DNA from: Alphaproteobacteria bacterium
GTDB lineage: Bacteria > Pseudomonadota > Alphaproteobacteria > Bin98
Length of the DNA stretch: 64,000 bases
Reading direction: 5' to 3'
Assembly: GCA_965261615.1 (NCBI GenBank)
Contig: OZ253461.1
Location: forward strand, 1,395,994 to 1,459,993
Below are positions 7,071 to 24,350 of this stretch, one piece after another. The notes beneath the pieces were generated by a model. The model was not told the origin of the DNA. It searched no databases and saw only the letters and a list, made by a program, of their open reading frames with translations. The translations under genes and the position numbers were made by a program. Each line of letters begins with the position of its first letter. Positions within the stretch are counted from its first letter, which is position 1.

Positions 7071-7088
7071 TACTAAATTCTCGTCTTT

Positions 7089-10095: not shown

Positions 10096-10656
10096 CTATT
10101 TGAAACACTTCGCGCTTAATAGAAAGCCCACAAAACACATCAGCAACATATAAATCCACTTCATTTTATCTACATGCCGCATAAGCCAATCTTTATAGCG
10201 CCCCTTATATCTTTTGGCGATATACGCGATAAGACAAAATCGCATCCCCCGCGCCACAAGAGTGCTCACAACAAAAAGCAAAAAGTTATAGCGGACAAAA
10301 CCAAAAACCATCACAACAATCTTAAACGGCAAGGGGATAAAGGACTTTAAAAGCATAGCCCAGCACCCATAGCGCTCAACAAACAAACATATTGTTTCGA
10401 ACTTCGCGCTAGCAGAATAAAAATTGATGATTTTTTCGCCACAAGACATAAAGGCAAAAGCCCCAAAGCAGTATCCCAGTATGCCGCCACACACAGATGA
10501 CAAAGACACTAACACCCACAGCATATGACGAATAGTTGGGTGTTTCCAAACAAACGTTGCTAACAGAGGGTCCACAGCAATGGGCAAAAATGCGCTTTCA
10601 CAAAAAGAAGTGACACATAGACTGATAACATCACGGCGTTGACTGGAAATTTGCAT
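10096..10656 (-). CDS. YqaA/DedA-family (SNARE-associated) inner membrane protein
   Basis: 186 aa from ATG 10656-10654 with 4-5 TM segments and DedA/YqaA-like features. The listed ORF start at 10809 runs through the tRNA-Leu gene and is rejected. Confidence 0.55.
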   Translation of the reverse strand: MQISSQRRDVISLCVTSFCESAFLPIAVDPLLATFVWKHPTIRHMLWVLVSLSSVCGGILGYCFGAFAFMSCGEKIINFYSASAKFETICLFVERYGCWAMLLKSFIPLPFKIVVMVFGFVRYNFLLFVVSTLVARGMRFCLIAYIAKRYKGRYKDWLMRHVDKMKWIYMLLMCFVGFLLSAKCFK

Positions 10657-10670
10657 AACTTTATAAGCGG

Positions 10671-10755
10671 TGGTACCCCCGGGGAGAGTCGAACTCCCAC
10701 ACCCTAAGATAGCAGATTTTGAATCTGCCGCGTCTACCAATTCCGCCACAGGGGC
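10671..10755 (-). tRNA. tRNA-Leu (anticodon CAA), long variable arm, CCA encoded
   Basis: The reverse complement GCCCCTGTGGCGGAATTGGTAGACGCGGCAGATTCAAAATCTGCTATCTTAGGGTGTGGGAGTTCGACTCTCCCCGGGGGTACCA is a type-II tRNA with anticodon loop TTCAAAA. Confidence 0.88.
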
Positions 10756-10762
10756 ACGGTAG

Positions 10763-10771
10763 ATTATAGCA
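10763..10771 (-). promoter_or_regulatory. Extended -10 element TGCTATAAT upstream of tRNA-Leu(CAA)
   Basis: The minus strand reads TGCTATAAT, and the last base of the hexamer is 8 nt from the mature tRNA 5' end. The predicted TSS is therefore about 1 nt upstream of the tRNA. Confidence 0.5.
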
Positions 10772-10833
10772 CATGAAAACTTAGCCGCGCAATAAAATTC
10801 ACAAGCCATCTAGCAAATCTTTTACTTAAATAC

Positions 10834-11018: not shown

Positions 11019-12911
11019 TCAGTTTTGATCATAGTTGGCCAATATGTCAGCATACTGGTCTTTTGGCTTTCCTCCGCCACCACGTCTACGGTTCCTTTTC
11101 CCGTCAGAATCCGGACGCACTCTGTTACCAGCGTTTTCATCGACCACCTTTTCTTTCGAAGGCGATACAACATTACCGATTTCATCATTTCCGGAAGGTT
11201 TGTTATTTTGGGGGTCCTGCCTTCGACCTCCGCGACCACCACTACCGCCAGAAGAAGACTTCTGCCCCCCACCATGCTCGTGTAACATCACAATCACTCT
11301 TGGGCGCTTTCCAGCGACACCCTCAATCCACTTACGTGTGTCAACACACAAGTAATGGGTTAATGTTTTCGGATGAGCGCCTTTGTGGTTCGCCACAATT
11401 TTGTGAATCATACCATTTAGATCTGATTGCAGAGAAGCATCCTCCCAAACACCCAGCTGCGCAGCGACGGCTTTTTCATATACCCCTTTCGCATTACGCA
11501 AAACAGAAATAGTCACCACACCATTTTTGGACATAGTTTCGCGCTCTTGCAGCACAGGACTGTCCAAATCAATATAGCGCTTCCCGTCCAAACCAAAAAC
11601 TTTAGCATCTGCGCTCATAACCATCTCAACATCATCACTGGAGCACTCATACAAGTGCCCATTTTTTGTATGCAAAGACTGTAGTTTTTTACCATTCGCA
11701 ACAATCTTGTGTTCCCCCAAGTGATAGTGCTCTCCGTGAACTGGCAAAACCATTTTTGGTTTCAGCCATTGATACATCGTTTCCACATCTTCTCGGCTTG
11801 GGTGCCCTGCCACGTGCACCATAATGTGCTCATTCGATATCACACGCGCACCCTTAAGGTTTAGGTTGTTTTTAAGCTCAGCAATTTTGCGCTCGTTTCC
11901 TGGAATATTTCTTGAGGAGAAAATCACGATATCCTCTTCCTTCAGAGACACAAATCGATGCGAGTCTGTGGACAGGCTCCACAGCGCGGCTCGATCTTCT
12001 CCTTGAGATCCAGAGCACACAAAAGCAACTTTCGCTGCAGGAAGGTCGGCCGCCTCTTGTGGTGACACCACCTCAGGAAAGTCAGCCAAATAGCCCAACT
12101 CTGAAGCTACAGCATATGTTTTCTGGAAAGAGCGCCCGAGCAAACAAAGCTTCCGCTTGTGTTTGCGCGCTGCCCGACCAACAGCCACCATACGGCCTAC
12201 ATTTGAAGCAAAGCATGACACAAAAATACGCTGCTTCTTATAATCTCCAAAAAGCTTCATTATGTTATCAGCCACATCTGTCTCTGTTCCAGTGGCCTCC
12301 ATAACGTTAATGCTAGTTGAGTCACAAACAAGCACATCCACACCTGTCTTTTTAACAAACTCTACATCCTTCGCAGTAGTAGGCTGTCCGATTACAGGGG
12401 CATTGTCTAAACGCCAGTCCCCTGTGTGAAACACCTTCACCTTAGGTGTGCGCAAATACACTCCTGAGGCATCTGGAATAGAGTGGTTTAAAGGAATAAA
12501 GCGCGCATTAAAGTGCTCAGAAATTTGCGTATCTTTTTGCCATTCCACCACACGAATGTCGTCCTCATTGAATGAAACACCATTATCATTAAACTGATAT
12601 TTTATCATCCCCGCTGTAAACGGTGTGGTGTAAATAGGGCAGCGAATATCCTTCCAAAAATACGGCAAGGCTCCCACGTGATCTTCGTGGGCATGCGTCA
12701 TAATACACGCCTTTAAGTTTTTCTTTAAATTTTTTACAATTGTATGATCGGGAAAAACCACATCCACACCAAACCCTGGGTTAAAACTTACTCCCCAGTC
12801 GACCATGATCCATTCTCCGCAATACCCATAAAGGTTGAGGTTTCGTCCTATTTGGCCCGCACCACTTATTGGCCAAAAATATAATTTATCTTCTCTTAAC
12901 TTTAATTTCAT
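11019..12911 (-). CDS. rnj: Ribonuclease J (metallo-beta-lactamase / beta-CASP RNase) with ~84-aa Gly/Arg-rich C-terminal tail
   Basis: HAHEDHVG zinc motif and beta-CASP architecture. The alpha-proteobacterial position after nuoN-birA fits. The C-terminal tail is GGGQKSSSGGSGGRGGRRQ...KRNRRRGGGGKPK. Confidence 0.85.
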   Translation of the reverse strand: MKLKLREDKLYFWPISGAGQIGRNLNLYGYCGEWIMVDWGVSFNPGFGVDVVFPDHTIVKNLKKNLKACIMTHAHEDHVGALPYFWKDIRCPIYTTPFTAGMIKYQFNDNGVSFNEDDIRVVEWQKDTQISEHFNARFIPLNHSIPDASGVYLRTPKVKVFHTGDWRLDNAPVIGQPTTAKDVEFVKKTGVDVLVCDSTSINVMEATGTETDVADNIMKLFGDYKKQRIFVSCFASNVGRMVAVGRAARKHKRKLCLLGRSFQKTYAVASELGYLADFPEVVSPQEAADLPAAKVAFVCSGSQGEDRAALWSLSTDSHRFVSLKEEDIVIFSSRNIPGNERKIAELKNNLNLKGARVISNEHIMVHVAGHPSREDVETMYQWLKPKMVLPVHGEHYHLGEHKIVANGKKLQSLHTKNGHLYECSSDDVEMVMSADAKVFGLDGKRYIDLDSPVLQERETMSKNGVVTISVLRNAKGVYEKAVAAQLGVWEDASLQSDLNGMIHKIVANHKGAHPKTLTHYLCVDTRKWIEGVAGKRPRVIVMLHEHGGGQKSSSGGSGGRGGRRQDPQNNKPSGNDEIGNVVSPSKEKVVDENAGNRVRPDSDGKRNRRRGGGGKPKDQYADILANYDQN

Positions 12912-12915
12912 AACA

Positions 12916-13605
12916 TTACAGGGTTATCCCCGCCTCCAAAACTAAACTTCCTGCAGCCAGCTCACATGTTTGTCCGTCTTTATCTAAAAGCGCGGACCCA
13001 TTCACACTAACTCCCAAAAACTTTCCGGCCTCTGTTGGCCAATTTACGCGCTCCACTTTTACAGAACGTCCAATCCACAAGCCATGCGCATTCCACTCTG
13101 CACAGCAACAATAAGGGTTCCCCAGGTATATCTGCCAATCTGCAAGCACTTTTTTTATAATCCCCCATTTGTCGAGCACAACCCCCGTTACAGAAGCCAA
13201 ACTTACAGCTCGATCAATCGGCGCGTACAACGCGTTGATTCCAAAGCCCAAAATCCATCGATTAGCGGCCCGCTCAAGCAGCATCCCGCCCACCTTTTGA
13301 TTTTGCACGAAGAGGTCGTTGGGCCATTTTATTGAAACATCACAAAAATTCCCAAGCGCTCTTCTTATAACAACACTTGCCGCCATAATCAGCACATTCG
13401 GACAAAGGTCACTTTGAAAAGCCACGCTGCAGTATATATTCCCCTGCGGTGACGACCATACACGACCGTACTGCCCTCTCCCTTCCGTCTGTGCCTCTGC
13501 CACAAGAGCAACTATGCTCCTATTTGAAAACGCTTGCAGTTCTTTAATTGCGCTCATAGTCGATGAGCAACTTTTTACAGCACTTAAGCCAATCTCTGCT
13601 AACAT
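12916..13605 (-). CDS. birA: Biotin--[acetyl-CoA-carboxylase] ligase, group I (no N-terminal HTH)
   Basis: GRGQYGRVWSSPQGNIY matches the GRGRxGRxWxSPxG biotin-binding signature. At 229 aa it has the catalytic and C-terminal domains only. Confidence 0.85.
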   Translation of the reverse strand: MLAEIGLSAVKSCSSTMSAIKELQAFSNRSIVALVAEAQTEGRGQYGRVWSSPQGNIYCSVAFQSDLCPNVLIMAASVVIRRALGNFCDVSIKWPNDLFVQNQKVGGMLLERAANRWILGFGINALYAPIDRAVSLASVTGVVLDKWGIIKKVLADWQIYLGNPYCCCAEWNAHGLWIGRSVKVERVNWPTEAGKFLGVSVNGSALLDKDGQTCELAAGSLVLEAGITL

Positions 13606-13710: not shown

Positions 13711-14853
13711 TCACCGCCATAGCCACATGAGCATGCCCGCCACCATAGACACGCCTTGCACCACGGCAACATACCATCGTTCGTCCCGCCAATTACGCAT
13801 AATATGAACTTTGATTTCAACGGAGACTAACACACAAATACAAAACAAACAGTAACACAATACCAGCCAGCGCAACGTAGGGGGCAAGTCACCCCACAAA
13901 GCACACGACCACACCAAAGGATGCCCCACAAGAGCACCACTAGCCACACAAAGCGTTAAAACCGCAAATTGATTCCACGACAACCAAGCTGCCATTGCCA
14001 ACATAACAAAGACATAGCTTATAACAGCTCCATAACCAATAAATGGTTCCAATAAAAACGACAGGCTCACCCCCTGTACAAACGCCACATGCGTCAAAAC
14101 TTTTTTTTCACGCCCTGACCCAAGCGACGCCACACCATAAAGAGCGGAAAAGATCATAAAGGCAGTCAGCCATTCTGAGGGCAAAATATAGCAAAATATA
14201 GGAACAGGAACCCAGTACAGCCACACTATATGAGGAAGGGGAACGTACTCCTCCAAAAGAGAGTATCTCATAAATGGCAGCGCTGACAGAAGAAGAGCTG
14301 CGCACACAAGAGTGATACTTAAAAAGTTGTTATCCACCACAGGAAACCAGGTCATACTGCTTGCAATAACCCATCGAAAAAGCGCCACACTTTGCAGCAT
14401 GAGACAGCCAAGAAGGCTTAATATAACAGCATAGCGATGAGCTGTCGCCATTTGACAGCGTAGCAAGACTATAAGAAACACAAGCAATACAGTGCTGATC
14501 ACATCACTCGGGGTCTGCAGCCACACACTAATAGCGGCTAAGAGAACCCATGCTCGCTCCAAACCTAAGGTTTGCAAAGGAAATATAGGCAAAAGAGCGA
14601 GCAACATCAAAGCCCTTCCCTCGGGAAGGCTACCCCACACACCCTCACAGACTATCGCCGGCGCCATGCCGGCATACCAAATAATATTTTGAGCGCTCTT
14701 AACCAACCTGTGCAAAGAAAAGGTGTGCAGCAACCAAGAGACGCACACCCCCACCACTGAAACAACCTCAATAAACATAAGACCCCACCACCCTTCGAGC
14801 CATGCTATAAAGCAAAGCCAGTCTTTCATCCAAGTGCACACCACAAATGACAA
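13711..14853 (-). CDS. nuoN: Truncated, highly divergent antiporter-like complex I subunit (NuoN position)
   Basis: Last gene of the nuo array, directly before birA as in other alphaproteobacteria. It is a polytopic membrane protein of 380 aa. There are relics of the Mrp/Nuo motifs (PLPHIVWLYWVP resembles aPfHxWxPD; KKVLTHVAFVQGVSL resembles KRLLAYSSIxHxG). Confidence 0.45.
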   Translation of the reverse strand: MSFVVCTWMKDWLCFIAWLEGWWGLMFIEVVSVVGVCVSWLLHTFSLHRLVKSAQNIIWYAGMAPAIVCEGVWGSLPEGRALMLLALLPIFPLQTLGLERAWVLLAAISVWLQTPSDVISTVLLVFLIVLLRCQMATAHRYAVILSLLGCLMLQSVALFRWVIASSMTWFPVVDNNFLSITLVCAALLLSALPFMRYSLLEEYVPLPHIVWLYWVPVPIFCYILPSEWLTAFMIFSALYGVASLGSGREKKVLTHVAFVQGVSLSFLLEPFIGYGAVISYVFVMLAMAAWLSWNQFAVLTLCVASGALVGHPLVWSCALWGDLPPTLRWLVLCYCLFCICVLVSVEIKVHIMRNWRDERWYVAVVQGVSMVAGMLMWLWR

Positions 14854-15655
14854 AAACAGTCAGCCAAGCTAATGAGACTCGCATATCATTTTTGCGCAGC
14901 GGCGCTAAGCTAATCCAAACAGCCAAAAAAGCATAAAATGCCTGGAGGTCACGCGCACCACAAACAGCAGACATTCCCACCAGCAAAACGCTCACAAAAA
15001 TACTGCCATAACTCACTCTATTTTTTTCCAAATACACGTGCTGCCAGTACAGCGCTCCCGCAAAGTACGCCGCCATGGACCACCCAAGATCGCCTGCAAA
15101 GCTTGAGCCCACAAAAAAAGCGGACAAAAGCCCGGCTCCTACCCAAGATTTACCTTGCGTGACATTACCGGAAAAGCTTATCACAGCCAAGACACCCATC
15201 ATCTTCCAACATGTGACAGCAGGCAAAAACGCCAAACACTGCAGCTGCAAAAGGCTCGCAACCCTTTCTATAATATATGCACTGCCATCCCTTAAACACT
15301 CCAAAGCCGCAAATAGAGCCCAGCAAAAAAGAACCGCATAGCAAGACTGTCCTGGATGCAGCATCGCAAAATAGAAGCTTAAAAAAAACAACAGAACACA
15401 CCGCAAATACGCAGCTCCATTAGACAGGCCATGAACAGCCCAAGCACAAAAAACACATACGGCGATAAAATGCACATATAGCCAGCTGGATCCCAGAAAA
15501 AACTTGCATACAGGAAAAGCGGCCAACAAAAAGGTAAACGCCGCCCAAATAAACGCACGCTGAGAAATCAAAAAGCATGCATACACTGCTGGTAAGCTTC
15601 CTTGTAGTACACTATCCCACACAAACATAGGACCTCCAACCACACAACACTCCAA
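14768..15655 (-). CDS. nuoM: Truncated, highly divergent membrane subunit at the NuoM position
   Basis: The call rests on position between the NuoL-like and NuoN-like genes. It is polytopic and only 295 aa, against about 500 aa for canonical NuoM. No clear motifs were seen by eye. Confidence 0.3.
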   Translation of the reverse strand: MECCVVGGPMFVWDSVLQGSLPAVYACFLISQRAFIWAAFTFLLAAFPVCKFFLGSSWLYVHFIAVCVFCAWAVHGLSNGAAYLRCVLLFFLSFYFAMLHPGQSCYAVLFCWALFAALECLRDGSAYIIERVASLLQLQCLAFLPAVTCWKMMGVLAVISFSGNVTQGKSWVGAGLLSAFFVGSSFAGDLGWSMAAYFAGALYWQHVYLEKNRVSYGSIFVSVLLVGMSAVCGARDLQAFYAFLAVWISLAPLRKNDMRVSLAWLTVFVICGVHLDERLALLYSMARRVVGSYVY

Positions 15656-16760
15656 TCAACAAAAGCACCAACAATACACCGCCCACATAATCATGCTGAC
15701 GATACCTCACGATTTTAGACTGCACCGTTGTCAACAATTTTTCTACAAAGTTATCCCCACTCTTAATAGCACGCCACCAACTAAAAGACAGTGGGCGCAC
15801 TTTTAACATATACCCCCCCATTACCGCAGCGCTATAAAACAGCCCAAATCCCAAGCCTTGTCCTAGCTTCACCTTCTGCAGCAACCAAAGAGAGCTCAGC
15901 GTAAACCCACCGTACAACAACACCATGGCCAAAAGCAAAAAAAACATTTTAGAAAACCTCACCTGAGTCTCTGGCTGCTCATAACTCCACCGGCACAAAA
16001 GACGCCCATGCACCATACCGCACCCTGCGAGCATAATCAATTGATGCAGTCGATCAAAGTGACTCACATCACTTTTACATAAGAGCGGAATAAACACCCC
16101 ACCAGCAGCAATCCACAAGCTAACCATACTGGATATTTTAATTGCTTTCCGCATTTGTGCAGAGTGAAAGCTCAACCCTTGCGCAAAGGGAATAAGCAGC
16201 ACTGACATCAGCCAACACACCCAACCTCCTTTCACCCCACCTGAGCACGGCAAAAGCTGCCCAAGTACGCAAGCTTGCGAAATGGCAGCGTATCGTAAAG
16301 TCCACAGCGGGCAGCACATCGCCCAAACAGTCAAAATCCCCTGCAGCCACATCATCTGTGGAACATACATAAATTGGCAAGCATAAGGCAAAAAGTTAAG
16401 CAAGCAAACAGCATACCAGCTAACAAAAACAGCACTCCACGCATGCTGCTCGCGCGGCAAACAATACGCCCCCAGCATCACTACCCAGAACACGTGTCCC
16501 AATGGAAGCTTTCCAAAAGCACAGCCCACCCCCACAAATAGAGCGATCACCCAAATCAGTAAAAACGCACCCACAATACGTGGCAAAAAGCACAAAAAGT
16601 ACCCTAAACTGACCCAGGATGCCCAAGGCACAGGCAGAAAAAGTATGCTCGCTGACCCCAAAGCCCAAAATGCTTTTTCCCACATTTTTTTCGCACAAGC
16701 AACAGCCCACAGCGAAACAAACACCGCACACACTACTGCGTAGTACGGGGCCGCTATCAT
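15612..16760 (-). CDS. nuoL: Truncated, highly divergent antiporter-like subunit at the NuoL position
   Basis: Polytopic, 382 aa, against about 600 aa for canonical NuoL. There are relic motifs (GKLPLGHVFWVV resembles GKSAQxPLHxWLP; MRKAIKISSMVSL resembles DxKKxLAYSTxSQL). It overlaps the nuoK-like stop by 4 nt. Confidence 0.4.
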   Translation of the reverse strand: MIAAPYYAVVCAVFVSLWAVACAKKMWEKAFWALGSASILFLPVPWASWVSLGYFLCFLPRIVGAFLLIWVIALFVGVGCAFGKLPLGHVFWVVMLGAYCLPREQHAWSAVFVSWYAVCLLNFLPYACQFMYVPQMMWLQGILTVWAMCCPLWTLRYAAISQACVLGQLLPCSGGVKGGWVCWLMSVLLIPFAQGLSFHSAQMRKAIKISSMVSLWIAAGGVFIPLLCKSDVSHFDRLHQLIMLAGCGMVHGRLLCRWSYEQPETQVRFSKMFFLLLAMVLLYGGFTLSSLWLLQKVKLGQGLGFGLFYSAAVMGGYMLKVRPLSFSWWRAIKSGDNFVEKLLTTVQSKIVRYRQHDYVGGVLLVLLLIGVLCGWRSYVCVG

Positions 16761-17035
16761 TTAGAAGACCTCTGACATTTTGTTAACAATACAAGGCTCA
16801 CCAAAAAGTAGCTAATGCTTATAAGAAGCGTTATTAAGCTTGCTCCGCCTTCTTGGCCACTCGTCAACACCACAACCACAACTCCCAAACTCACAATTTG
16901 AGAAAAAAATATACGTGTCACTCCTCGTTTGCCCCAAATCAAACCTAAAAGACCCAAGAGTATAATTAGCACACCACCCACTTCACACCTCCTCTTGCTA
17001 ACCCTTTTGTAATTTAGACAGCAGGGCATCAACAT
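16757..17035 (-). CDS. nuoK: NuoK-like small membrane subunit (divergent)
   Basis: Three predicted TM helices, size and position fit NuoK. GLLGLIWGKRGVTRIFF resembles GLxGxxxRRNxIxxLM. The real start is possibly the GTG at 16981. Confidence 0.4.
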   Translation of the reverse strand: MLMPCCLNYKRVSKRRCEVGGVLIILLGLLGLIWGKRGVTRIFFSQIVSLGVVVVVLTSGQEGGASLITLLISISYFLVSLVLLTKCQRSSK

Positions 17036-17435
17036 AATAAGATCCTACGCCCAACAAAATAAAAACTAACATCCAAATCCATTGGACATTATGAAGTAAA
17101 ACTTCTGTATACGGTCCCACACTCACAGCAGGAAGCTCAAAAATGTCAGGCCTCCAAAGCACCCCAGCTGCACCAAGAAGCCAAACCACAAATCGCGTGA
17201 TTCGGCCCTTAGGGTCAAAAAAATCTTGCTCCTGATCCAGCACAAACTCAAGCAAAGAAATAAAGGCCCCCAACGTCACCAAGCTTACAAAAAATACACC
17301 GACCTGATATAGGGCTCCCACTCCCACAAGAACCATCAGCACCCCAAGGCGCATAAACGCAGCTGCACCATGAAGCATCAGCATGCCTCCCACAATTATT
17401 TTTGTGATCCCCAGCCACCAAAAACACTCCGTCAT
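16998..17435 (-). CDS. nuoJ: NuoJ-position membrane subunit (divergent, short)
   Basis: The call is positional, between nuoI and the nuoK-like gene. It is a 145-aa hydrophobic protein. Confidence 0.3.
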   Translation of the reverse strand: MTECFWWLGITKIIVGGMLMLHGAAAFMRLGVLMVLVGVGALYQVGVFFVSLVTLGAFISLLEFVLDQEQDFFDPKGRITRFVVWLLGAAGVLWRPDIFELPAVSVGPYTEVLLHNVQWIWMLVFILLGVGSYYVDALLSKLQKG

Positions 17436-17444
17436 TTTCCTGCC

Positions 17445-17756
17445 TTATGTCCGTACATTTTTTTCAGAAGTAGGCGAAACCTCACAAGGAGTCTCTACAG
17501 TAAACTCAAGTGCATCAACTGGACATGATTGAACGCAAAGATCACAGTGCAAACAGCGGTTCATGTCTACATCCAACCTGGCAAGTTGCGGCAAGCCATC
17601 CACTATATAACCCTCTATCTGAATAGCATTTACTGGGCACACATTCGCGCAAATACCGCAAGTAACACACTTTTCTTTTTGTGTATGAGCATACCGCTTC
17701 ACAGAAAGTGTGTAAACCTCCGGTTTAGAACTTTGCAAGACTTTATTCTGTTTCAT
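17445..17756 (-). CDS. nuoI: NuoI-like 2x[4Fe-4S] ferredoxin subunit (short, 103 aa)
   Basis: Two complete CxxCxxCxxxCP motifs (CVTCGICANVCP and CLHCDLCVQSCP) with NuoI-like spacing, and the correct position in the operon. Confidence 0.7.
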   Translation of the reverse strand: MKQNKVLQSSKPEVYTLSVKRYAHTQKEKCVTCGICANVCPVNAIQIEGYIVDGLPQLARLDVDMNRCLHCDLCVQSCPVDALEFTVETPCEVSPTSEKNVRT

Positions 17757-17818
17757 CGCTTCGCCTCATCCACAAACAGCCACCCCTAACATGGCCTACT
17801 TTGTCAAATATCACCATA

Positions 17819-18508
17819 TCATAATATAAGCCGATGATATACATAAAACATGACTAGCACCCCGACACATAACGAGCTTATCGCAAAACTGACCCCCAAA
17901 ACTAGCCTCACAACCGAATGCACATGCGCAACACGATTCGGAGTGAATACCAAAAGCGCGCTGACGGCAAAGCCAAAAACAAACGCGCGTACACTGCTGA
18001 ATCCTATTGTCATTACAGGGGTATAAAGGCAAGGCAGACCGTAAAGTACAGATACACAAGCAGCCAGAGCAACATGTGTCCTCAGTTGAAGGTGCTTATA
18101 CAGAATATACATATCCGCTAAAATAACAGCACTATATCCATACAACGCAACCCCTTCAGAAAGGCACATAGCCGCAAAAACCCCAAAACCCACAGCCAAC
18201 CACATAAGCGCCGCTAACGCTAAAGAAGACCTTTTTGCCGCAACAGAAAAAGCGAGCAAAATTCCCACTCTTAGAACGACAGCTATCAACACGTGGCCCA
18301 ACTCTGCTGCCCACCACAAACCATACACCACCAATAAACACAAAGACAATGCCGACGTAGTATAGAGTTGAGAAAGCAAAAAACGCCTCCTAGAATAGAC
18401 CTGAACATACTGTCGCGGCCAGCCCTCATACCACCCATGCAAAACAGCAATCACGCCAGTATACAAAACTACAACCCCATAAAAGAGGCTAATGGAAGGC
18501 ATCACCAC
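17819..18508 (-). CDS. Membrane protein at the NuoH position (229 aa, no recognisable NuoH motifs)
   Basis: The call is positional, between nuoG and nuoI, and it overlaps the nuoG stop. It has about 7 hydrophobic segments. The canonical NuoH loop motifs were not found by eye. Confidence 0.3.
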   Translation of the reverse strand: MVMPSISLFYGVVVLYTGVIAVLHGWYEGWPRQYVQVYSRRRFLLSQLYTTSALSLCLLVVYGLWWAAELGHVLIAVVLRVGILLAFSVAAKRSSLALAALMWLAVGFGVFAAMCLSEGVALYGYSAVILADMYILYKHLQLRTHVALAACVSVLYGLPCLYTPVMTIGFSSVRAFVFGFAVSALLVFTPNRVAHVHSVVRLVLGVSFAISSLCVGVLVMFYVYHRLIL

Positions 18509-20574
18509 ACACCTCTTCTTTTCACTGCCGAGTCTTTATATATTTTTTGCATTTTGATGGAATTTTTCGCCACGATGTTGGGAACGCTCGAAGGATACTC
18601 TTCCGGAATCCAGGCGTCACTCAGCTGTATCACTGTACTCCCCAGTGACGATGAGCTCAATCGCTTTTCTCCCTTTTTTCCAAAGTGCGTTTCATATAAA
18701 CTTTGCACGTAACTTGTTAGCTGATCTCGACTACGCGCTTGATAATGCGAATTACATAAACGAATAATTTCCTGCAAAATCCAGACATCATCACGGACGT
18801 TGTGACGAGGGTTTGTCACTTTTTCAGTACACTTGAGCTGTCCTTCTGCATCAACATAAGAGCCCGCATGTTCTGTATGAACTTCACTAGGCATAATCAC
18901 TTGCGCTCCTCTGTATACGGCATCATCATGCGTACCCTGCAGCACCACCAATGTATCTTCACGCCAAAAACTCTTTTCTGGATAGTATCCAATACACCAT
19001 AGCCCCTTCAAGTAGCCTTGAGCAACTGCATCCTTAATCCCCGCGCTTGTAAGGCCTTGGTCTTGCGTAAGTGACTTTATATCCAAGCCCTGTATAGTGT
19101 TAGCGCAAAGTGGAACAAAAGCAATTGGCGCCCAATTGGCGGTTTGATTATAACGCGCGGCAATTTTGCGAATCATACCCCACACAATATTTGCATGTCC
19201 ATCACACACAACATGCTCCCCACAAATGAACAGAGGTTTTTTAGCATTACGTAACGCTGAGGCAAGAACGCCTCTTCCTTGCGCTAACTGCGTCAGGTGC
19301 AGCCGATCTCGCCCAACACACTGCGCATACTCCGTTGTTCCAAACGAGCCTAAGGAAAATATTGGCCCTCTCTTTTCATTACGATACCGCACCAACAGCG
19401 TGTGTAAAATAGGCATATCATAAAGCGGCGCCGCCCCCACAAGAATAATCGCATCCGCACACAATACTCTATCTAAGGGCCCTCCAAACGTATAATCTCG
19501 CGTTTCCTCTTGGAAAGTGGCGGGGTAATGTCCTGCATTAAGCGCACAATGCTTGATACCAACTTCTTGCATAAGAATCGACAAGGTCACCAACGTTTCT
19601 GCATCCACAAAGGGTCCCACAAGAACTCCAACGTTGCCCCAGCCAATTTTTTGAAATTGCTCCACAGCATAGGACAGAATACTCTCCCAACTCACGATTT
19701 TTCCAAAACCTTGCTCACGCACCTCTGGGGCTTGCACTCGATTTAAAACCAAACCATCCAAAGAAAAGCGAGCCCTATTGGACAACCATCGATATGGCAC
19801 TTTCTGAGGAGGCCTCACATCAACTATATAGCTTTCAAAGCGACGCCACACCAAAGGCGTTAGGGCAGCATCTTGCAGATCAAATCCAGGCACCTCCTGC
19901 ATCACGGAGCCAGACCACACTCTATCCGGCACAAGCGCACCCGACGGACAAATTTCCAGCAAGTTTCCTGAAAACACGGAAGGCGCATTCTGCTCTCCCA
20001 AGACACTCACGCCAGTGTCGCGTGAAAGCTCAAGCATCGGAAGGCCTACATTATTTTTATAAAACTCCACGCAAAGCTGACAGTGCATGCATCGCGTTGG
20101 AACCGCGCGCATTACAACATCCAAAGGCGCAGGCGGTGTCATGGACTCGTCCCTCACTCGCTGCTCACCACACGCTTTGTTGTTAGCCACTGCATTACCC
20201 AGCATATGATTATATTTTTTTTCTGACAAAGCGGCATCATTGGGCTGGTTACTAGCAATCAAGATCAACGCCTTTTGTCGAGCAGTCATTGCATCTTTAT
20301 GCTTTATAGAAACCTTTACGCCAGGCATATTGGCCATAGTGCATGCTAACAGCACCTTTTTTGACCGCATGCAGTATACGTGACAAGCACCTGCACACGA
20401 AGGGGCCTCTAACTCGTTGTAAAAACAAAAGTTTGGCAAAACTCCTTTAGCTTGCAGAGCAGACCCCAGCCGCTTCAAGTCCTCTCTAACAACCACAGGT
20501 TTTCCATCAATATATACAGTATGCTTCACAACAAATCTATCTCCGAAAGCCCTAGCAACCCCTTTGTCACCCAC
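18502..20574 (-). CDS. nuoG: NADH-quinone oxidoreductase subunit G-like (divergent)
   Basis: N-terminal 2Fe-2S-like Cys cluster (FCFYNELEAPSCAGACHVYC), RCMHCQLCVEF plus ICPSGAL (N4-type 4Fe-4S), then a molybdopterin-oxidoreductase-like body. The HxxxCxxCxxxxxC (N5) segment is replaced by NQPNDAALSEKKYNH. Confidence 0.72.
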   Translation of the reverse strand: MGDKGVARAFGDRFVVKHTVYIDGKPVVVREDLKRLGSALQAKGVLPNFCFYNELEAPSCAGACHVYCMRSKKVLLACTMANMPGVKVSIKHKDAMTARQKALILIASNQPNDAALSEKKYNHMLGNAVANNKACGEQRVRDESMTPPAPLDVVMRAVPTRCMHCQLCVEFYKNNVGLPMLELSRDTGVSVLGEQNAPSVFSGNLLEICPSGALVPDRVWSGSVMQEVPGFDLQDAALTPLVWRRFESYIVDVRPPQKVPYRWLSNRARFSLDGLVLNRVQAPEVREQGFGKIVSWESILSYAVEQFQKIGWGNVGVLVGPFVDAETLVTLSILMQEVGIKHCALNAGHYPATFQEETRDYTFGGPLDRVLCADAIILVGAAPLYDMPILHTLLVRYRNEKRGPIFSLGSFGTTEYAQCVGRDRLHLTQLAQGRGVLASALRNAKKPLFICGEHVVCDGHANIVWGMIRKIAARYNQTANWAPIAFVPLCANTIQGLDIKSLTQDQGLTSAGIKDAVAQGYLKGLWCIGYYPEKSFWREDTLVVLQGTHDDAVYRGAQVIMPSEVHTEHAGSYVDAEGQLKCTEKVTNPRHNVRDDVWILQEIIRLCNSHYQARSRDQLTSYVQSLYETHFGKKGEKRLSSSSLGSTVIQLSDAWIPEEYPSSVPNIVAKNSIKMQKIYKDSAVKRRGVW

Positions 20575-21674
20575 TTACTATACTGGCATATACACACATC
20601 ACGCGCCATGCGCGCCGCATATACAGCCGCGCCAACATCACCGCCATACAAGGCATTCTGCACTGCTGGCAACCCCTCACGGCATCCCACACAGTACCCA
20701 CTTCGCTCTTCCACCACAAAGTCCATAAACATTTGCACCATTCTCAGTAGGTCAGAAGATTTTGAAACTATCAAAATATCTCCCGACCGAATAGTCGTAT
20801 TAAGCTTTTGCATAGCGCTTTCACACAACACCGCTTTTTCCGCAACCGTTACCACGAGAGGTTTGGACAAAAGTCCTCCCGGAAATACACATCGAACATT
20901 AGACCATACACCCCTCACGCCACCTGCATATTTTTCAACCGCTGCCACCAAACCTTCTCCAACAGCAACCTCCACAACTTGCGGGTTAACGACCTCACCA
21001 CTTATAGCAACGATTTGCCGTGCATTTTTTTTCCACCAGTCGGCACCATTGACGCAGATAGTCGGGACACACAAGAAGGTTTCCGCAGCGCCCATAAGAA
21101 CTTTTTCGCCATAAAGTGTGCTCGGAGCAGGATTATGCACTTGATCGCTTTCTAAATGTCGCAACACCGCTTCATCTTCTGCTCCCCCCAAAAACCCTCC
21201 ACTTAATCGTATATGCACTAATATTTTCAGGGGAGACGCAGGTCCAATTACACCTCGCTCAATAGCCTGATCTCTTATTTGAACAAGTTTTTGATAATGC
21301 GCGATCAGTGCTCCATGTACAACTATACAAACATAGCGGGCTTTGACTGCAAGCGCCACTAATAGCGCCCCCTCCACGACGTTTTCTGGAGCCTGCCACA
21401 CAATAGCGGCCTCCTTTTTCTGCCCCCAAAAGCACTCCGCTGTATTAACTACAACACCTGCATAGTCTGATGTGGTGCGCAGTTTTTCTGAAAATTCCCC
21501 GCCACGCATACCACGATTCTCAAGCCCGCTGTTAACAAGCGTATCGTACACATAGTCCTTGCGTGTCATTAGCTTACGAAAAACCTCAAAGCCTTCTGGC
21601 GTAGCAAGCTGCGACAACATTTTCTTCATATCTACTAATCTTACCAACTTTCTGTTAGTAACTCCAGGGCACAA
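20526..21674 (-). CDS. nuoF: NADH-quinone oxidoreductase subunit F-like (divergent)
   Basis: Collinear with NuoF. NRGMRGGEFSEK stands for RGRGGAGFPTG, LSGGFLGGAEDEAV for GAGAYICGEETAL, and ERSGYCVGCREG for ESCGxCxPCREG. Confidence 0.72.
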   Translation of the reverse strand: MCPGVTNRKLVRLVDMKKMLSQLATPEGFEVFRKLMTRKDYVYDTLVNSGLENRGMRGGEFSEKLRTTSDYAGVVVNTAECFWGQKKEAAIVWQAPENVVEGALLVALAVKARYVCIVVHGALIAHYQKLVQIRDQAIERGVIGPASPLKILVHIRLSGGFLGGAEDEAVLRHLESDQVHNPAPSTLYGEKVLMGAAETFLCVPTICVNGADWWKKNARQIVAISGEVVNPQVVEVAVGEGLVAAVEKYAGGVRGVWSNVRCVFPGGLLSKPLVVTVAEKAVLCESAMQKLNTTIRSGDILIVSKSSDLLRMVQMFMDFVVEERSGYCVGCREGLPAVQNALYGGDVGAAVYAARMARDVCICQYSKWVTKGLLGLSEIDLL

Positions 21675-21682
21675 ACCCTCAC

Positions 21683-22099
21683 CTACACCTTAACTTTTTC
21701 ATCTTGAAGAAAAATAACTGGGCTGCTTTCGCACATCCCTAAGCAGCTATACTCTATGGATAGGTGCCCTAAATCAAGATGATCCCGCAGCCACTTTTGG
21801 TGTTTGTCTTTATTAGGACAAGAACTGCAGGTCATTCCGGCACAAACACGAACAACCGGCAACCCACCTGTATATCTCAAAGACGGGTTCTTTGCTATAC
21901 ATGCCCAAATCACTATAGGCTCTATTTGCAGCACTTCTGCAAGATTCAAAACCTGCTCTTCACAAATACCTAGGTCATTTTGCATTAATACTAAAATATC
22001 GTAAAGAATATTATCATCACGAGAAATTCTTTGCGTATTAACAATTTTATCCACTTTTTGTAAAAATGACTTCCACATACCCCTACCGATCCAGCTCAC
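21683..22099 (-). CDS. nuoE: NADH-quinone oxidoreductase subunit E-like (2Fe-2S thioredoxin-like ferredoxin)
   Basis: Cx4C...Cx3C pattern (VCAGMTCSSC ... SCLGMCESSP) and the correct position between nuoCD and nuoF. Confidence 0.7.
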   Translation of the reverse strand: MSWIGRGMWKSFLQKVDKIVNTQRISRDDNILYDILVLMQNDLGICEEQVLNLAEVLQIEPIVIWACIAKNPSLRYTGGLPVVRVCAGMTCSSCPNKDKHQKWLRDHLDLGHLSIEYSCLGMCESSPVIFLQDEKVKV

Positions 22100-23618
22100 T
22101 CATTGACAAACCCATAGACGCCGCCATGACAGGCAAATCTTCCTCTTCTACATCCTTTGCAAGAGAATTTATTAAAAAAGCAAGAGACAAGCTACTAGAG
22201 CGCATTTTCACACAAGAAGGGTAACTTCCTCCTCCCACCATAAGCATACTCACCACACCATTGGGTCCTTCCACGCAAGAGATGTGCTCTCCTTGATAAA
22301 AAATACCTTCTCGATAAAAATGCATATGCTGCATCATAGCTGTATTTTCTTGCCAAATCTTTTGATAGTCTGTCATAGCCCAACTTGTAGGGTTAGAAAA
22401 ATCAAGATCGGAGAGAGCAACAAGACCTTGGTTTAAGATACTTAAGCTTACTCGCACATCTTCAATCAACACTTGCGCACGAGTATATGCACACCCTTTC
22501 TCCTCCACAGGAAGGCTATACTGACACTCCACATAAGCGTCATAAGGCCTTTTCACACGCCAATCAAAGGCACAGCCGGTTGCGCGCAACACGGGGCCAG
22601 TCACGCCTAACGCAAGAGCTTCTTGGCTTCCGACAACACCAAGACCCGCCATCCTTTTGTGGACCATATCTCGAGAAAAAGCTTGTTGAACCTTTTGGAA
22701 AAATGTTGTAGCTACTTGCTCAAACTTTTGATGCAGGCTATATACATGCTCACTCATGGCGTGATGCACCCCGCCCGGACAAATAAAGTACCCTCGAAAC
22801 TCTGATTTAAGAGCTCCTAGCGCCCTCCGATAACTGCTATACAGATCCTCCCACCCAACACGACGACGATAACCAACACTCTCAAGAATTTGCATGAGGG
22901 TTGCTCCAGAGTAATAAATCCGAGATCCTTCTAACAGCACTATTCGTAACCATTTACTATATGGTGGCACTGTAATATTCAAACAGCCCTCCATATGCAA
23001 AGCGTAATTATGTTCATGAACAAAAGGCGTAGCAGCGCTCCAGCGCCCCATATACACCAACCCCTGAAGGTATGTTTTTGTGCGTAGGTGTTTTTCCCAC
23101 TGCCGTGCAAAAAAGCCAGGTTGCACATACGCACTCTTTATTTTTCCGTTCAGCTTTTGACCGCGCATAACACACACACCGCGCTCACTTGCATAAGGCC
23201 AAATCATTTTTTCAAACTCATTCTCTGCACACTCTCCTGGATAAAGGACGCTATGTTCCCACATATCCAAGAAGTTTACTTGATAACTTTCATACACCTC
23301 TTTTTGCAAGATTAAGGAGTTTTTGAAAAATGTATGCAGACTCACAATCGGAGCTCCAGACCATTTAAAACTTACACAATATATTTGTGCTGTAGCAGTT
23401 TCAAGAAACGTATAATACAAATAGCGACAATCCTCCTCTGCTCTTACCGCAATATCCAGCAAAAGATCCACTCCAATTTCAAGGCTTGTCAGCTTTTGGA
23501 TAACATCAAAAAACGACTTTTGCGCTATTCGCACAAATATATTATCTTGATGGGCAAACACACTCATTTTTTTATGATTTAAGCTTTTTATTGCTTTAAT
23601 TTTTATCGCAATCATCAA
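22083..23618 (-). CDS. nuoCD: Fused NuoC-NuoD subunit (divergent, 511 aa)
   Basis: The N-terminal third is NuoC-like (LILQKEVYESYQVNF resembles WxEREvxDmfGixF). The remainder is collinear with NuoD (GFFARQWEKHLRTKTYLQGLVYMGRW resembles GyLHRGxEKlxExxtyxQxxpyxDRl). The C-terminus MSELDR resembles the canonical ...GEVDR. Confidence 0.75.
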   Translation of the reverse strand: MMIAIKIKAIKSLNHKKMSVFAHQDNIFVRIAQKSFFDVIQKLTSLEIGVDLLLDIAVRAEEDCRYLYYTFLETATAQIYCVSFKWSGAPIVSLHTFFKNSLILQKEVYESYQVNFLDMWEHSVLYPGECAENEFEKMIWPYASERGVCVMRGQKLNGKIKSAYVQPGFFARQWEKHLRTKTYLQGLVYMGRWSAATPFVHEHNYALHMEGCLNITVPPYSKWLRIVLLEGSRIYYSGATLMQILESVGYRRRVGWEDLYSSYRRALGALKSEFRGYFICPGGVHHAMSEHVYSLHQKFEQVATTFFQKVQQAFSRDMVHKRMAGLGVVGSQEALALGVTGPVLRATGCAFDWRVKRPYDAYVECQYSLPVEEKGCAYTRAQVLIEDVRVSLSILNQGLVALSDLDFSNPTSWAMTDYQKIWQENTAMMQHMHFYREGIFYQGEHISCVEGPNGVVSMLMVGGGSYPSCVKMRSSSLSLAFLINSLAKDVEEEDLPVMAASMGLSMSELDR

Positions 23619-23628
23619 AAACTTCCTT

Positions 23629-23976
23629 TTATAGATAATTGGATAAATGCATAAGCATATTTTTCACGGTGTCCTGGCTTATCACACCTGTACGCCAAAT
23701 TAAATTAGGTTGAAACTCCCAACGTTCTCGACACGCCTCATCATCCATACCACAGGGAAGCGGAAGGCCTATGAGCCCCACAAGCTTAGGGTCTTGCAGC
23801 TGACTATACACTTTATGAAGCAAACCAACCATGCCTTTTGTGACCATACCAACCACGATCAAAACGTTTGCTTCAGAAGGCTGACAAATATTTCGCGGTA
23901 TCGAGTGCAACTCATCGCTTACCCCATTAAAAACAAATGGCACCAAAACCCCCCGGCGCACCGTTTTTTTAAACAT
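23629..23976 (-). CDS. nuoB: N-terminally truncated NuoB-like subunit (115 aa)
   Basis: PSEANVLIVVGMVTKGMVGLLHKVYSQLQDPKLVGLIGLPLPCG aligns with [44 protein letters not shown]. An in-frame stop at 24025-24027, with no ATG/GTG/TTG in between, rules out a longer N-terminus. Confidence 0.65.
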   Translation of the reverse strand: MFKKTVRRGVLVPFVFNGVSDELHSIPRNICQPSEANVLIVVGMVTKGMVGLLHKVYSQLQDPKLVGLIGLPLPCGMDDEACRERWEFQPNLIWRTGVISQDTVKNMLMHLSNYL

Positions 23977-24214
23977 GCTTTTTTTCCCCCAAAGACCATA
24001 GTTTATACACGGTGTATAAGAAAACTAAAACAGCAAGCAACCCCGTCAGTAGAGGAGTCGTTATTTCATGACAACCTATAAGGGCATAACTTATAAAGCC
24101 ACCTATTATAGAAAACACAACTGCAACTAGCATAATGGACCTTTCAAACATATCGCTCCTCCATCTAATTGTACCTAAAAAAAACACAAAAAGTGCAGTT
24201 TTTATAAAGTCCAA
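23969..24214 (-). CDS. nuoA: NuoA-position small membrane protein (81 aa, TTG start in the listed ORF)
   Basis: First ORF of the array, with two to three hydrophobic segments, overlapping nuoB by 8 nt. The assignment is positional only. Confidence 0.3.
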   Translation of the reverse strand: MDFIKTALFVFFLGTIRWRSDMFERSIMLVAVVFSIIGGFISYALIGCHEITTPLLTGLLAVLVFLYTVYKLWSLGEKKHV

Positions 24215-24235: not shown

Positions 24236-24263
24236 TTGACAAAAGTCTAGTCTATGCTATAAT
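24236..24263 (+). promoter_or_regulatory. Consensus sigma70 promoter TTGACA-16-TGcTATAAT for tRNA-fMet
   Basis: TTGACA lies at 24236-24241 and TATAAT at 24258-24263, preceded by TGc. The predicted TSS is about 24270, 3 nt before the tRNA. Confidence 0.65.
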
Positions 24264-24272
24264 CTATTGTGA

Positions 24273-24350
<78 letters not shown>

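Follow-up and report, generated by a model that had tools for sequence, protein, structure and literature searches.

The core subunits of respiratory complex I (NDH-1, the proton-pumping NADH:quinone oxidoreductase encoded by the nuo operon) are among the most conserved proteins of aerobic life, and their genes are normally deleted when respiration becomes dispensable. Departures from this pattern are known in a few systems. Mitochondrion-related organelles of the Blastocystis type combine complex I with an alternative oxidase (AOX) and have no complexes III and IV; their core subunits are canonical, and the enzyme is thought to pump. The Trichomonas hydrogenosome keeps only NuoE and NuoF (the 24- and 51-kDa subunits), which serve as an NADH dehydrogenase module with a functional FMN/NADH site. 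The Ehr-type relatives of group-4 hydrogenases lack active-site ligands and are ancient paralogs with conserved antiporter-like subunits. Here, we analyse a shortened nuo array of 13 open reading frames (ORFs) located in a 64,000-nucleotide stretch of an alphaproteobacterial genome (assembly GCA_965261615.1, contig OZ253461.1, positions 1,395,994 to 1,459,993 of the forward strand), hereafter called the window.

The window array shares its gene order and the folds or domains of NuoD, NuoF, NuoG and NuoI with canonical NDH-1, such as that of Paracoccus denitrificans (8QBY) and Thermus thermophilus (4HEA). It also shares with canonical alphaproteobacterial complex I the nuoN-birA-rnj context and the ligands of the iron-sulphur (Fe-S) clusters N1a, N1b, N4 and N6a/b. 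Unlike canonical NDH-1, it encodes a truncated NuoC fused to NuoD and seven membrane subunits that are unrecognisable and carry none of the conserved charged residues. As in the Blastocystis-type chain, a complex I (derivative) appears to be accompanied by AOX only, no bc1, haem-copper or bd oxidase COGs being listed for the related genome bin98; here, however, the signatures of catalysis and pumping have disappeared, and the genes belong to a bacterium's own genome. The Trichomonas NuoE/NuoF pair and the window array are both lineage-specific remnants of complex I after the loss of classical respiration, but Trichomonas keeps two subunits and a functional FMN site, whereas the window keeps all 13 positions and a degraded FMN site. 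Ehr-type systems and the window array are both complex-I-family assemblies without canonical active-site residues; unlike the Ehr-type paralogs, the array is an orthologous nuo operon in its ancestral context, with a NuoEFG module. Our preferred explanation, to which we give about an even chance of being right, is that the array represents the ancestral complex I of a fast-evolving, host-associated clade, in the stem of which NADH oxidation, quinone reduction and proton pumping would have been lost, and that it has been kept under selection since.

Anatomy and distribution of the array

The first-pass annotation described 13 open nuo ORFs in canonical positions, followed by birA and the RNase J gene. 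All of these were found again, the 13 ORFs being contiguous on the minus strand (13711-24214), in nuoA-N order and free of internal stops in the standard bacterial code. Lengths are given below in amino acids (aa), with the canonical length for comparison.

23969-24214, minus strand: nuoA-position ORF, 81 aa as listed; a Shine-Dalgarno-like start at 24151 gives about 60 aa; assigned by position only
23629-23976, minus strand: nuoB remnant, 115 aa (canonical 179), with sub-threshold family scores
22083-23618, minus strand: nuoC-nuoD fusion, 511 aa, Pfam Complex1_49kDa at E=2e-40
21683-22099, minus strand: nuoE, 138 aa (canonical 223), Pfam 2Fe-2S_thioredx at 22.4 bits against a threshold of 24.8
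20526-21674, minus strand: nuoF, 382 aa (canonical 434), Pfam Complex1_51K at 33 bits
18502-20574, minus strand: nuoG, 675-690 aa, likely start 20529, Pfam Molybdopterin and Fer4_Nqo3
17819-18508, minus strand: nuoH-position ORF, 229 aa (canonical 334), hydrophobic with multiple transmembrane segments
17445-17756, minus strand: nuoI, 103 aa (canonical 162), termini trimmed, Pfam Fer4 at 6e-16
16998-17435, minus strand: nuoJ-position ORF, 145 aa (canonical 202), hydrophobic; by position only
16757-17035, minus strand: nuoK-position ORF, 92 aa as listed; the likely start at 16981 gives about 74 aa; by position only
15612-16760, minus strand: nuoL-position ORF, 382 aa (canonical 643); by position only
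14768-15655, minus strand: nuoM-position ORF, 295 aa (canonical 523), likely start 15628; by position only
13711-14853, minus strand: nuoN-position ORF, 380 aa as listed; a database call from 14778 gives 355 aa (canonical 481)
12916-13605, minus strand: birA, Pfam BPL_LplA_LipB, directly downstream of the array
11019-12911, minus strand: RNase J (rnj), Pfam RNase_J_b_CASP, downstream of birA
9453-10070, minus strand: AOX, Pfam AOX at 218 bits, E 1e-64

The recognisable order, B-CD-E-F-G-x-I-x-x-x-x-x, is that of Thalassobaculum and Oleisolibacter. The array spans 10,504 bp and encodes 3,543 aa, in agreement with the earlier estimate of about 10.5 kb. A canonical composite, made of nuoA-G from Thalassobaculum salexigens (6.9 kb) and nuoH-N from Oleisolibacter albus (7.6 kb), covers about 14.5 kb; relative to it, the membrane half is shortened by 37%, the peripheral half by 17% and the entire array by 28%. 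In the fusion, the NuoC part is trimmed to about 120 aa. The arrangement nuoN-birA-(coaX)-rnj is also present in the canonical alphaproteobacterium O. albus. Because this context is kept and the synteny recurs in three related lineages, the window array is the vertically inherited ancestral nuo operon, as had been proposed. The overlapping stop/start junctions of the first-pass annotation hold in part. Several long overlaps arise because the most upstream start, giving the longest ORF, had been taken, and starts preceded by a Shine-Dalgarno-like site leave short gaps or overlaps of 1-17 nt between nuo ORFs. This still indicates tight coupling after start correction. In the case of the nuoK-position ORF, the GTG at 16981 has GAGGA upstream, and the resulting 74 aa or so fits the 71-75 aa of its counterparts. 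A reassignment of UGA to tryptophan, as in Hodgkinia, was considered and rejected: TGA terminates six of the 35 recognisable non-nuo genes, ORFs cover the window densely and in a way consistent with code 11 when TGA is read as a stop, and code 4 hardly lengthens the nuo ORFs. A perfect sigma-70 promoter (TTGACA, 16 nt, TG-TATAAT; 12/12) lies on the plus strand at 24236-24263, just upstream of tRNA-Met (24273-24349) and divergent from nuoA; none comparably good was seen for the nuo operon.

Relatives were reached by searching with the adjacent RNase J, which delineates three related lineages at 70%, 53% and 53% identity. The closest relative of the window comes from an ENA metagenome (loci L002, L003 and L012), a second lineage from the NCBI metagenome-assembled genomes (MAGs) GCA_026710745.1 and MPNG01, 'Alphaproteobacteria bacterium bin98' (L004, L005, L008 and L009), and a third from a JGI metagenome (L006 and L007). 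The bin98 MAG derives from a symbiont of the sponge Aplysina aerophoba and has an estimated size of 1.9 Mb, 40.65% GC, an estimated completeness of 85.6% and 1455 coding sequences, 34% of which are in COGs (PMC5649159). All three related lineages have the shrunken array upstream of birA-rnj, with ORF sizes nearly those of the window: 511-516 aa for CD, 129-159 for E, 367-393 for F, 673-688 for G and 114-121 for I, and, at the membrane positions, 226-247 for H, 143-156 for J, 71-75 for K, 327-403 for L, 258-288 for M and 363-369 for N. The synteny common to the four lineages runs nuo-birA-rnj-VTT-AOX-accD-rpsB-tsf-pyrH-frr, followed by uppS and cdsA, with an extra gene between birA and rnj in L006. 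Four lineages, and no fewer than seven independent assemblies, thus share the eroded array, and this excludes an artefact. The bin98-type locus occurs in four assemblies of different projects (ENA, two from NCBI, and JGI) at 99.5% to 100% nucleotide identity, and this near-identity shows the bin98-type lineage to be widespread and nearly clonal across samples.

Other searches returned little. An RNase J search of GTDB representatives found neither the window genome, which lies on a contig of 1,465,401 bp, nor any relatives, the NuoG clade alignment found only bin98, and a metagenome scan found only another bin98-like contig. NuoCD searches of a 5.8-billion-protein index gave only canonical NuoD proteins at 26-31% identity; they missed the NuoCD of the relatives, since these searches swamp the word filter of 8000 candidates. 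A Paracaedibacter locus (L011) has no nuo genes beside rnj and was left out of the comparison. In the literature, we found no account of complex I in this clade and no comparable bacterial case, the only report being the original binning study of bin98 (PMC5649159).

Divergence, cofactor sites and selection

The divergence of the array from canonical complex I is specific to the locus, as had been claimed. Identity to Thalassobaculum is 38% for NuoB (over 39 aa), 29% for NuoD, 27% for NuoF, 24% for NuoG and 38% for NuoI, and the membrane ORFs give no BLAST match to canonical subunits; as a control, two ordinary alphaproteobacteria of different families share 62-83% identity in H-L. All recognised Nuo ORFs fall two- to six-fold under the NCBIfam cut-offs (bits/cut-off: B 25/143, D 181/360, E 24/141, F 133/559, G 215/470, I 59/113). 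In the case of nuoI, the best family is NuoI, at 59 bits against cut-offs of 113-225. The neighbours tsf (231/104), frr (177/149) and trxB (382/343) lie above theirs. At the Pfam level, only D, F, G and I domains reach threshold; Oxidored_q6 of NuoB scores 15 bits against 27, and HMMER aligns only residues 32-71 of this protein, to residues 71-110 of Thermus Nqo6. Between the window and its closest relative, identity is 45-75% in housekeeping neighbours, 33-47% in hydrophilic Nuo subunits and at the level of shuffled sequences in the membrane ORFs, whereas other membrane proteins of the window are normally conserved (CdsA 71%, RseP 53%).

NuoD illustrates what remains. The window protein keeps 68 of the 150 columns that are invariant in 25 canonical sequences, the other 82 being altered. 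Its AlphaFold2 model, built with canonical homologs, has a pLDDT of 58.6 (66-86 in the core) and matches 49-kDa subunits at TM-scores of 0.55-0.73, so that the predicted NuoD fold is kept. Nothing points to a group-4 hydrogenase: the best family match of the window protein is NuoD, at 181 bits, followed by FpoD at 109, no hydrogenase large-subunit family is listed, the C-terminus ends ...SMSELDR without a cysteine and, unlike in group-4 [NiFe] hydrogenases, a NuoE, F and G module is present.

Cofactor ligands were audited in MAFFT alignments against Thalassobaculum, with HMMER alignments to solved structures as independent confirmation. The sites read as follows.

N1a, NuoE: all four Cys kept in the window (CxxxxC...CxxxC), and also in L002 and bin98
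FMN/NADH pocket, NuoF: Gly-rich loop degenerate in the window and 6-7 residues shorter; D94A, E97F, Y180L
N3, NuoF: Ser replaces the first Cys in the window, the other three Cys being present; 4/4 in bin98 and L006; three canonical Cys and one shifted Cys in L002
N1b, NuoG: four Cys kept in the window, with CxxxC spacing instead of CxxC; same in all lineages
N4, NuoG: kept in the window and all lineages
N5 (HxxxCxxCxxxxxC), NuoG: 0/4 in the window, which reads Q..A..S....H; 4/4 in L002, bin98 and L006
N6a and N6b, NuoI: both CxxCxxCxxxCP motifs intact, the eight Cys being kept in all four lineages
N2, NuoB: 0/4 at canonical positions in the window, the CC motif and the C-terminal CP being gone; 3/4 in L002 and bin98, with CC and CP kept
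Quinone Tyr87 (Thermus Nqo4 numbering), NuoD: Ala in the window, Pro in L002, Gln in bin98; DRLDY aligns to GRWSA
Quinone His38 loop (Thermus Nqo4 numbering), NuoD: Arg in the window; QHPAAHG aligns to PYASERG; no His in L002

The earlier statement that the array is stripped of cofactor and quinone motifs is thus right for N5, N2, the FMN loop and the quinone Tyr and His, but not for N1a, N1b, N4, N6a and N6b, which are intact. The loss of the NuoD Tyr and His is confirmed by MAFFT, by HMMER against PDB structures and by a 26-sequence alignment. The degenerate, shortened NuoF loop (canonically GRGGAGFPTG), D94A and E97F are found in all four lineages; the GEE motif is not conserved within the clade, and N92, E95 and NVET are partly kept. 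In NuoG, the cysteines invariant across the clade are C35, C45, C49, C63, C147, C150, C153 and C194. The window proteins do not form the unbroken chain N3-N1b-N4-N5-N6a-N6b-N2, N5 and N2 having no ligand left and N3 being reduced to three Cys and a Ser. The loss of the N5 and N2 ligands is specific to the window genome, and that of the FMN loop and the quinone Tyr is clade-wide where readable. As only the window genome has lost N5 and N2, the array partly reflects a continuing, lineage-specific erosion and not a designed minimal enzyme.

The seven ORFs at the A, H, J, K, L, M and N positions are very hydrophobic (GRAVY 0.9-1.2, with 1.21 for the nuoH-position ORF) and have 2-8 predicted transmembrane segments each. 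None has a Pfam match at E<=0.1. The claim that nuoA and nuoK are recognisable is not borne out: these two are no more so than H, J, L, M and N, and all seven are nuo genes by position only. The nuoA-position ORF is hydrophobic with two or three predicted transmembrane segments and resembles neither Thalassobaculum NuoA nor the ORFs of the relatives; that at the nuoK position has three hydrophobic segments. Profiles of the clade aligned to small canonical profiles with hhalign reach a probability below 2% in all pairs (below 1% for H), and those of N, H and L have no match in the PDB at E<=10. A phmmer search of 1.84 billion representative proteins with the N ORF yields, besides the query, a single match, its L002 ortholog (29% identity, E 3e-21), and no canonical NuoN. 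By Pfam, BLAST, phmmer, hhalign and PDB profiles, there is no signal of the three antiporter (Proton_antipo_M) subunits or of NuoH (NADHdh). The four-lineage alignment of N contains no invariant Lys, Glu or Asp, and that of H, which is unreliable, only two invariant Arg.

Similarity among the lineages themselves is also low. Globally, the identity of membrane ORFs between lineages equals that of shuffled sequences. Locally, shuffle z-scores in the closest pair are 31 for N, 9.3 for J, 5.2 for K and a weak 3.4 for H, and there is no significant similarity even in this pair for L (0.5) and M. In the L004-L006 pair, local alignment is significant for N and H only, and J resembles its closest relative only (tblastn E 2e-4). 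A similarity hidden by frameshifts was considered, and tblastn of the membrane regions against the relatives found none. The L ORF ends with a loop of 60 residues and then a 27-residue transmembrane segment, a pattern repeated in L004 and L006; this long hydrophilic stretch and last segment resemble the lateral helix and TM16 of canonical NuoL. A single-sequence AlphaFold2 model of the N ORF has a pLDDT of 49. The descent of the membrane ORFs from nuoH-N rests only on position, relative size pattern and coarse topology. On the plus strand, the AT skew of this region rises to 0.27-0.37, reflecting T-rich codons.

Selection on the array can be read from its frames. When the window is compared with its closest relative, every gene shows a proportion of synonymous differences (pS) of 0.62-0.85, the level of shuffled codons. 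Synonymous divergence (dS) being saturated in this closest pair, the ratio of non-synonymous to synonymous divergence (dN/dS) is not measurable, and strain-level copies differ by 0-7 single-nucleotide polymorphisms over nuo-containing stretches, too few for a polymorphism ratio (pN/pS). Saturation nevertheless means that unconstrained sequence would be randomised, so that the open frames have been held by selection over a very long period. In the hydrophilic Nuo subunits of the closest pair, the proportion of non-synonymous differences (pN) is 0.39-0.49, where shuffled codons give about 0.72; at 0.55-0.79, their dN is roughly double the median of the housekeeping genes and near the values of birA (0.56) and uppS (0.49). 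Judged by these values, the hydrophilic subunits are clearly under purifying selection.

The membrane ORFs follow another pattern. The 24 of them compared across the four lineages contain no in-frame stop, against 1-31 in each off-frame; in the window, the off-frames have 17 and 6 stops for H and 13 and 10 for M, against none in frame. Judged from composition, a frame would stay open by chance with a probability of about 1e-2 to 1e-3 in the short K ORFs, and of 1e-3 to 1e-10 at the other positions, and T occupies codon position 2 at a frequency of 0.40-0.55. The amino-acid sequences of the membrane ORFs thus change at nearly the neutral rate, unlike their frame integrity and composition; these ORFs are selected for an open frame, hydrophobicity and a given length, and hardly for a particular sequence. 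Neither the 13 window ORFs nor the visible arrays of the three related lineages contain a stop. On the strength of frames that stay open in four lineages despite saturated synonymous sites, ordinary pseudogenisation is excluded, which upholds the first-pass annotation. Similarity to the outgroup bin98, expressed for the window relative to L002, is 0.46 for NuoB, 0.87-0.90 for NuoG and 0.80 for NuoE, against at least 1.09 for CD, F and I and 0.97-1.08 for housekeeping proteins, with the VTT-domain gene as an outlier at 1.55; only NuoB is clearly accelerated, and NuoG and NuoE are so mildly. The window lineage has thus eroded further than its relatives in precisely the two subunits that lost clusters, NuoB and NuoG, with no general collapse of constraint.

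Respiratory context and competing explanations

The AOX gene lies about 3 kb downstream of the array; its product is 72% identical to that of the closest relative and far better conserved than any Nuo subunit. It occupies the same place in L002, L004/L005 and L006, beside a VTT/DedA-domain protein. AOX is a possible functional partner of the Nuo derivative, or the only other respiratory enzyme seen. The wider metabolic inventory is that of the sister MAG bin98, as given in its published COG table (Table S4, fourth column, PMC5649159), and not that of the window genome. This table has one entry each for NuoD, E, F, G and I and zero for NuoA, B, C, H, J, K, L, M and N (PMC5649159). These counts leave no room for a second canonical nuo operon in this MAG, which is 85.6% complete. 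Also at zero are SdhA, FrdB, NDH-2, the Rieske protein, cytochrome b, CyoA/B and CydA, as well as PyrD, GlpA, FixC, ETF-alpha, UbiA/D/X/H/E/G, citrate synthase, Icd, SucA and Mdh, and at one are AtpD, the ATP synthase delta subunit, the E1-alpha subunit of pyruvate dehydrogenase (PDH), Lpd and Pgi (PMC5649159). Taken at face value, the only respiratory parts of bin98 are the Nuo derivative, AOX and ATP synthase. The inventory suggests a strongly host-dependent energy metabolism, although it covers only the 34% of coding sequences that are in COGs.

The preferred explanation, a complex I that lost its respiratory chemistry in the stem and was kept by selection, can be put as a sequence of steps. 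In the clade stem, the operon would have ceased to be a canonical proton-pumping NADH:quinone oxidoreductase, its 13 translated ORFs being kept by selection. The constrained part would be a peripheral-arm assembly of NuoB, CD, E, F, G and I, with their folds and most clusters (N1a, N1b, N4, N6a and N6b), seated on seven short, very hydrophobic membrane proteins of low constraint. The NADH/FMN pocket, the quinone Tyr/His and every recognisable antiporter or quinone-tunnel feature have been lost clade-wide. In the window genome, the disappearance of N5 and N2 further cuts the electron wire from NuoF to quinone, in ORFs that are intact and, apart from NuoB, not further accelerated. The retained role would then be neither NADH-to-quinone transfer nor pumping and would need a membrane-anchored, assembled Fe-S protein body; it could be structural or scaffolding, or consist of short-range redox or sensing by the remaining clusters.

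A more specific version, which we put forward only tentatively, is that the 13 proteins form a repurposed assembly with a new non-respiratory role, as a scaffold, an anchor or a site of short-range Fe-S redox or sensing, and that its membrane subunits are nearly free of positional constraint. Such a repurposed assembly, if real, would show in nature how a respiratory complex can be reused after losing NADH oxidation, quinone reduction and pumping. The minimal or repurposed complex I suggested by the first-pass annotation is a functional hypothesis, and membrane ORFs with almost no positional constraint are hard to reconcile with a working minimal pump. A functional assembly would represent a new use of the complex I architecture and a natural experiment on what folding and assembly, as opposed to catalysis, require of the peripheral arm; functionless proteins would illustrate with unusual clarity how indirect selection can preserve reading frames. 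The array also matters for the energy metabolism of a sponge symbiont lineage that is abundant and uncultured.

Several points weigh against a loss of respiratory function in the stem. There is no positive evidence for any alternative function, and a literature search found no bacterial precedent for a purely structural role of 13 proteins in a reduced genome. The relatives keep the chain N3-N1b-N4-N5-N6a-N6b and three of the four N2 ligands. Bin98 has no COG for another quinone reductase (SdhA/B, NDH-2, PyrD, GlpA, ETF-QO), AOX is conserved and PDH is present, a combination most simply explained if the Nuo derivative still reduces quinone, at least in the relatives. Absence by COG is itself weak evidence in bin98, given its 85.6% completeness and the 34% of its coding sequences in COGs.

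These points lead to a rival that we consider rather unlikely, namely a working enzyme, non-pumping or barely pumping, that would pass electrons from NADH or another donor via quinone to AOX for redox balance, with motif changes as compensated remodelling. Bin98 and L006 indeed keep N3 (4/4), N1b, N4, N5 (4/4) and N6a/b, L002 has N5 (4/4) and the shifted N3 Cys, and both L002 and bin98 retain the CC and CP cysteines of NuoB. NuoF keeps N92, E95 and NVET, the AOX gene has the same place in all lineages and encodes a strongly conserved protein, and the bin98 COGs include PDH E1 and Lpd but no NDH-2, succinate dehydrogenase (SDH), Mdh/Ldh, bc1, haem-copper or bd oxidase, so that no other route of NADH re-oxidation or quinol supply is visible. 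However, the N5 and N2 ligands are all replaced in the window, leaving between N4 and N6a a gap which, judged from distances in the Thermus structure, is too long for useful electron tunnelling. Moreover, the FMN glycine loop, D94, E97, Y180 and GEE are not conserved even within the clade, the quinone Tyr is absent in all three lineages seen, the nuoH-position ORF, expected to form the quinone tunnel, has no conserved residues, and bin98 lacks COGs for Ubi biosynthesis.

It has also to be considered, as an improbable alternative, that the proteins are functionless and their frames kept by indirect selection, for example through polarity on the essential genes birA and rnj (by translational coupling or Rho-dependent termination) or through the toxicity of truncated subunits, the array being in slow, constrained decay. 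The tight coupling of the nuo ORFs (1-17 nt overlaps or short gaps), the same-strand birA and rnj that follow, the near lack of positional constraint in the membrane ORFs and the erosion of cofactor sites lineage by lineage would all fit. Polarity fails, however, to explain purifying selection on B, CD, E, F, G and I with more than 20 invariant Fe-S cysteines, or the kept hydrophobicity and lengths of the membrane ORFs. The nuoN-birA spacer is 105 nt in the window and 246 nt in L002; together with the extra gene between birA and rnj in L006, these spacers suggest that the downstream genes probably have their own promoters. Furthermore, reduced genomes delete useless DNA, and none of the four lineages has deleted the array. 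Finally, it is hardly credible that the array encodes a normal complex I, working in full, whose oddities reflect nothing but the very long branch of the lineage: the clade is fast overall (RNase J is about 40% identical to that of other alphaproteobacteria, and few bin98 coding sequences are in COGs), yet the neighbours pass family thresholds that every Nuo ORF fails two- to six-fold, CdsA and RseP are conserved where the nuo membrane ORFs are at random level, 82 of 150 canonical-invariant NuoD positions are altered, and defining ligands are gone.

Neighbouring features of the window

The genes around the array have features of their own. RNase J ends in a low-complexity tail rich in Gly and Arg, about 80 aa long and encoded at the 3' end of its gene (11019-11260); the full protein measures 619-642 aa in the clade, against 545-571 aa in other alphaproteobacteria. 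The VTT-domain ORF (10096-10809, 237 aa as listed) overruns tRNA-Leu(caa) at 10671-10755 on the same strand, and since the VTT proteins of the relatives measure 159-189 aa, its start is probably downstream of the tRNA. The rpsB gene (7089-8393) encodes an S2 protein with a long C-terminal extension, which contains 10.8 copies of a 42-bp tandem repeat (7127-7633, 95% matches) encoding AEAKPAAAKAKTES-like units. S2 is 344, 390 and 426 aa long in the relatives, and the L004 and L005 strains differ in the repeat region. The antisense ORFs at 6982-7794 and 7104-7700 are by-products of this repeat.

Directly upstream of nuoA and tRNA-Met lie two orphan proteins without a Pfam match, encoded at 24363-26687 (774 aa) and 26826-28376 (516 aa). 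The former is highly acidic and coiled-coil-like, with an N-terminal hydrophobic leader. Counterparts are found at the same place in bin98 (918 and 726 aa; L008, 1126-6069) and in the L002 lineage (L012, 1-534). Both orphans have the appearance of proteins that a bacterium living with a host secretes or displays on its surface. Farther away, the adjacent orphan ORFs at 55695-57038 and 57622-58917 are paralogs (27% identity over 369 aa, E 3e-25) with a VNQQNDPA motif and no Pfam match. A second adjacent orphan pair is located at 53626-54600 and 54597-55637, the former having no Pfam match. Throughout the window, the GC skew of the plus strand is uniformly and strongly negative, from -0.06 to -0.30 in every 2-kb bin, and 28 of the 35 recognisable genes are on the minus strand; this strand-biased gene orientation, together with the uniform skew, places the window inside one replichore with a marked strand bias.

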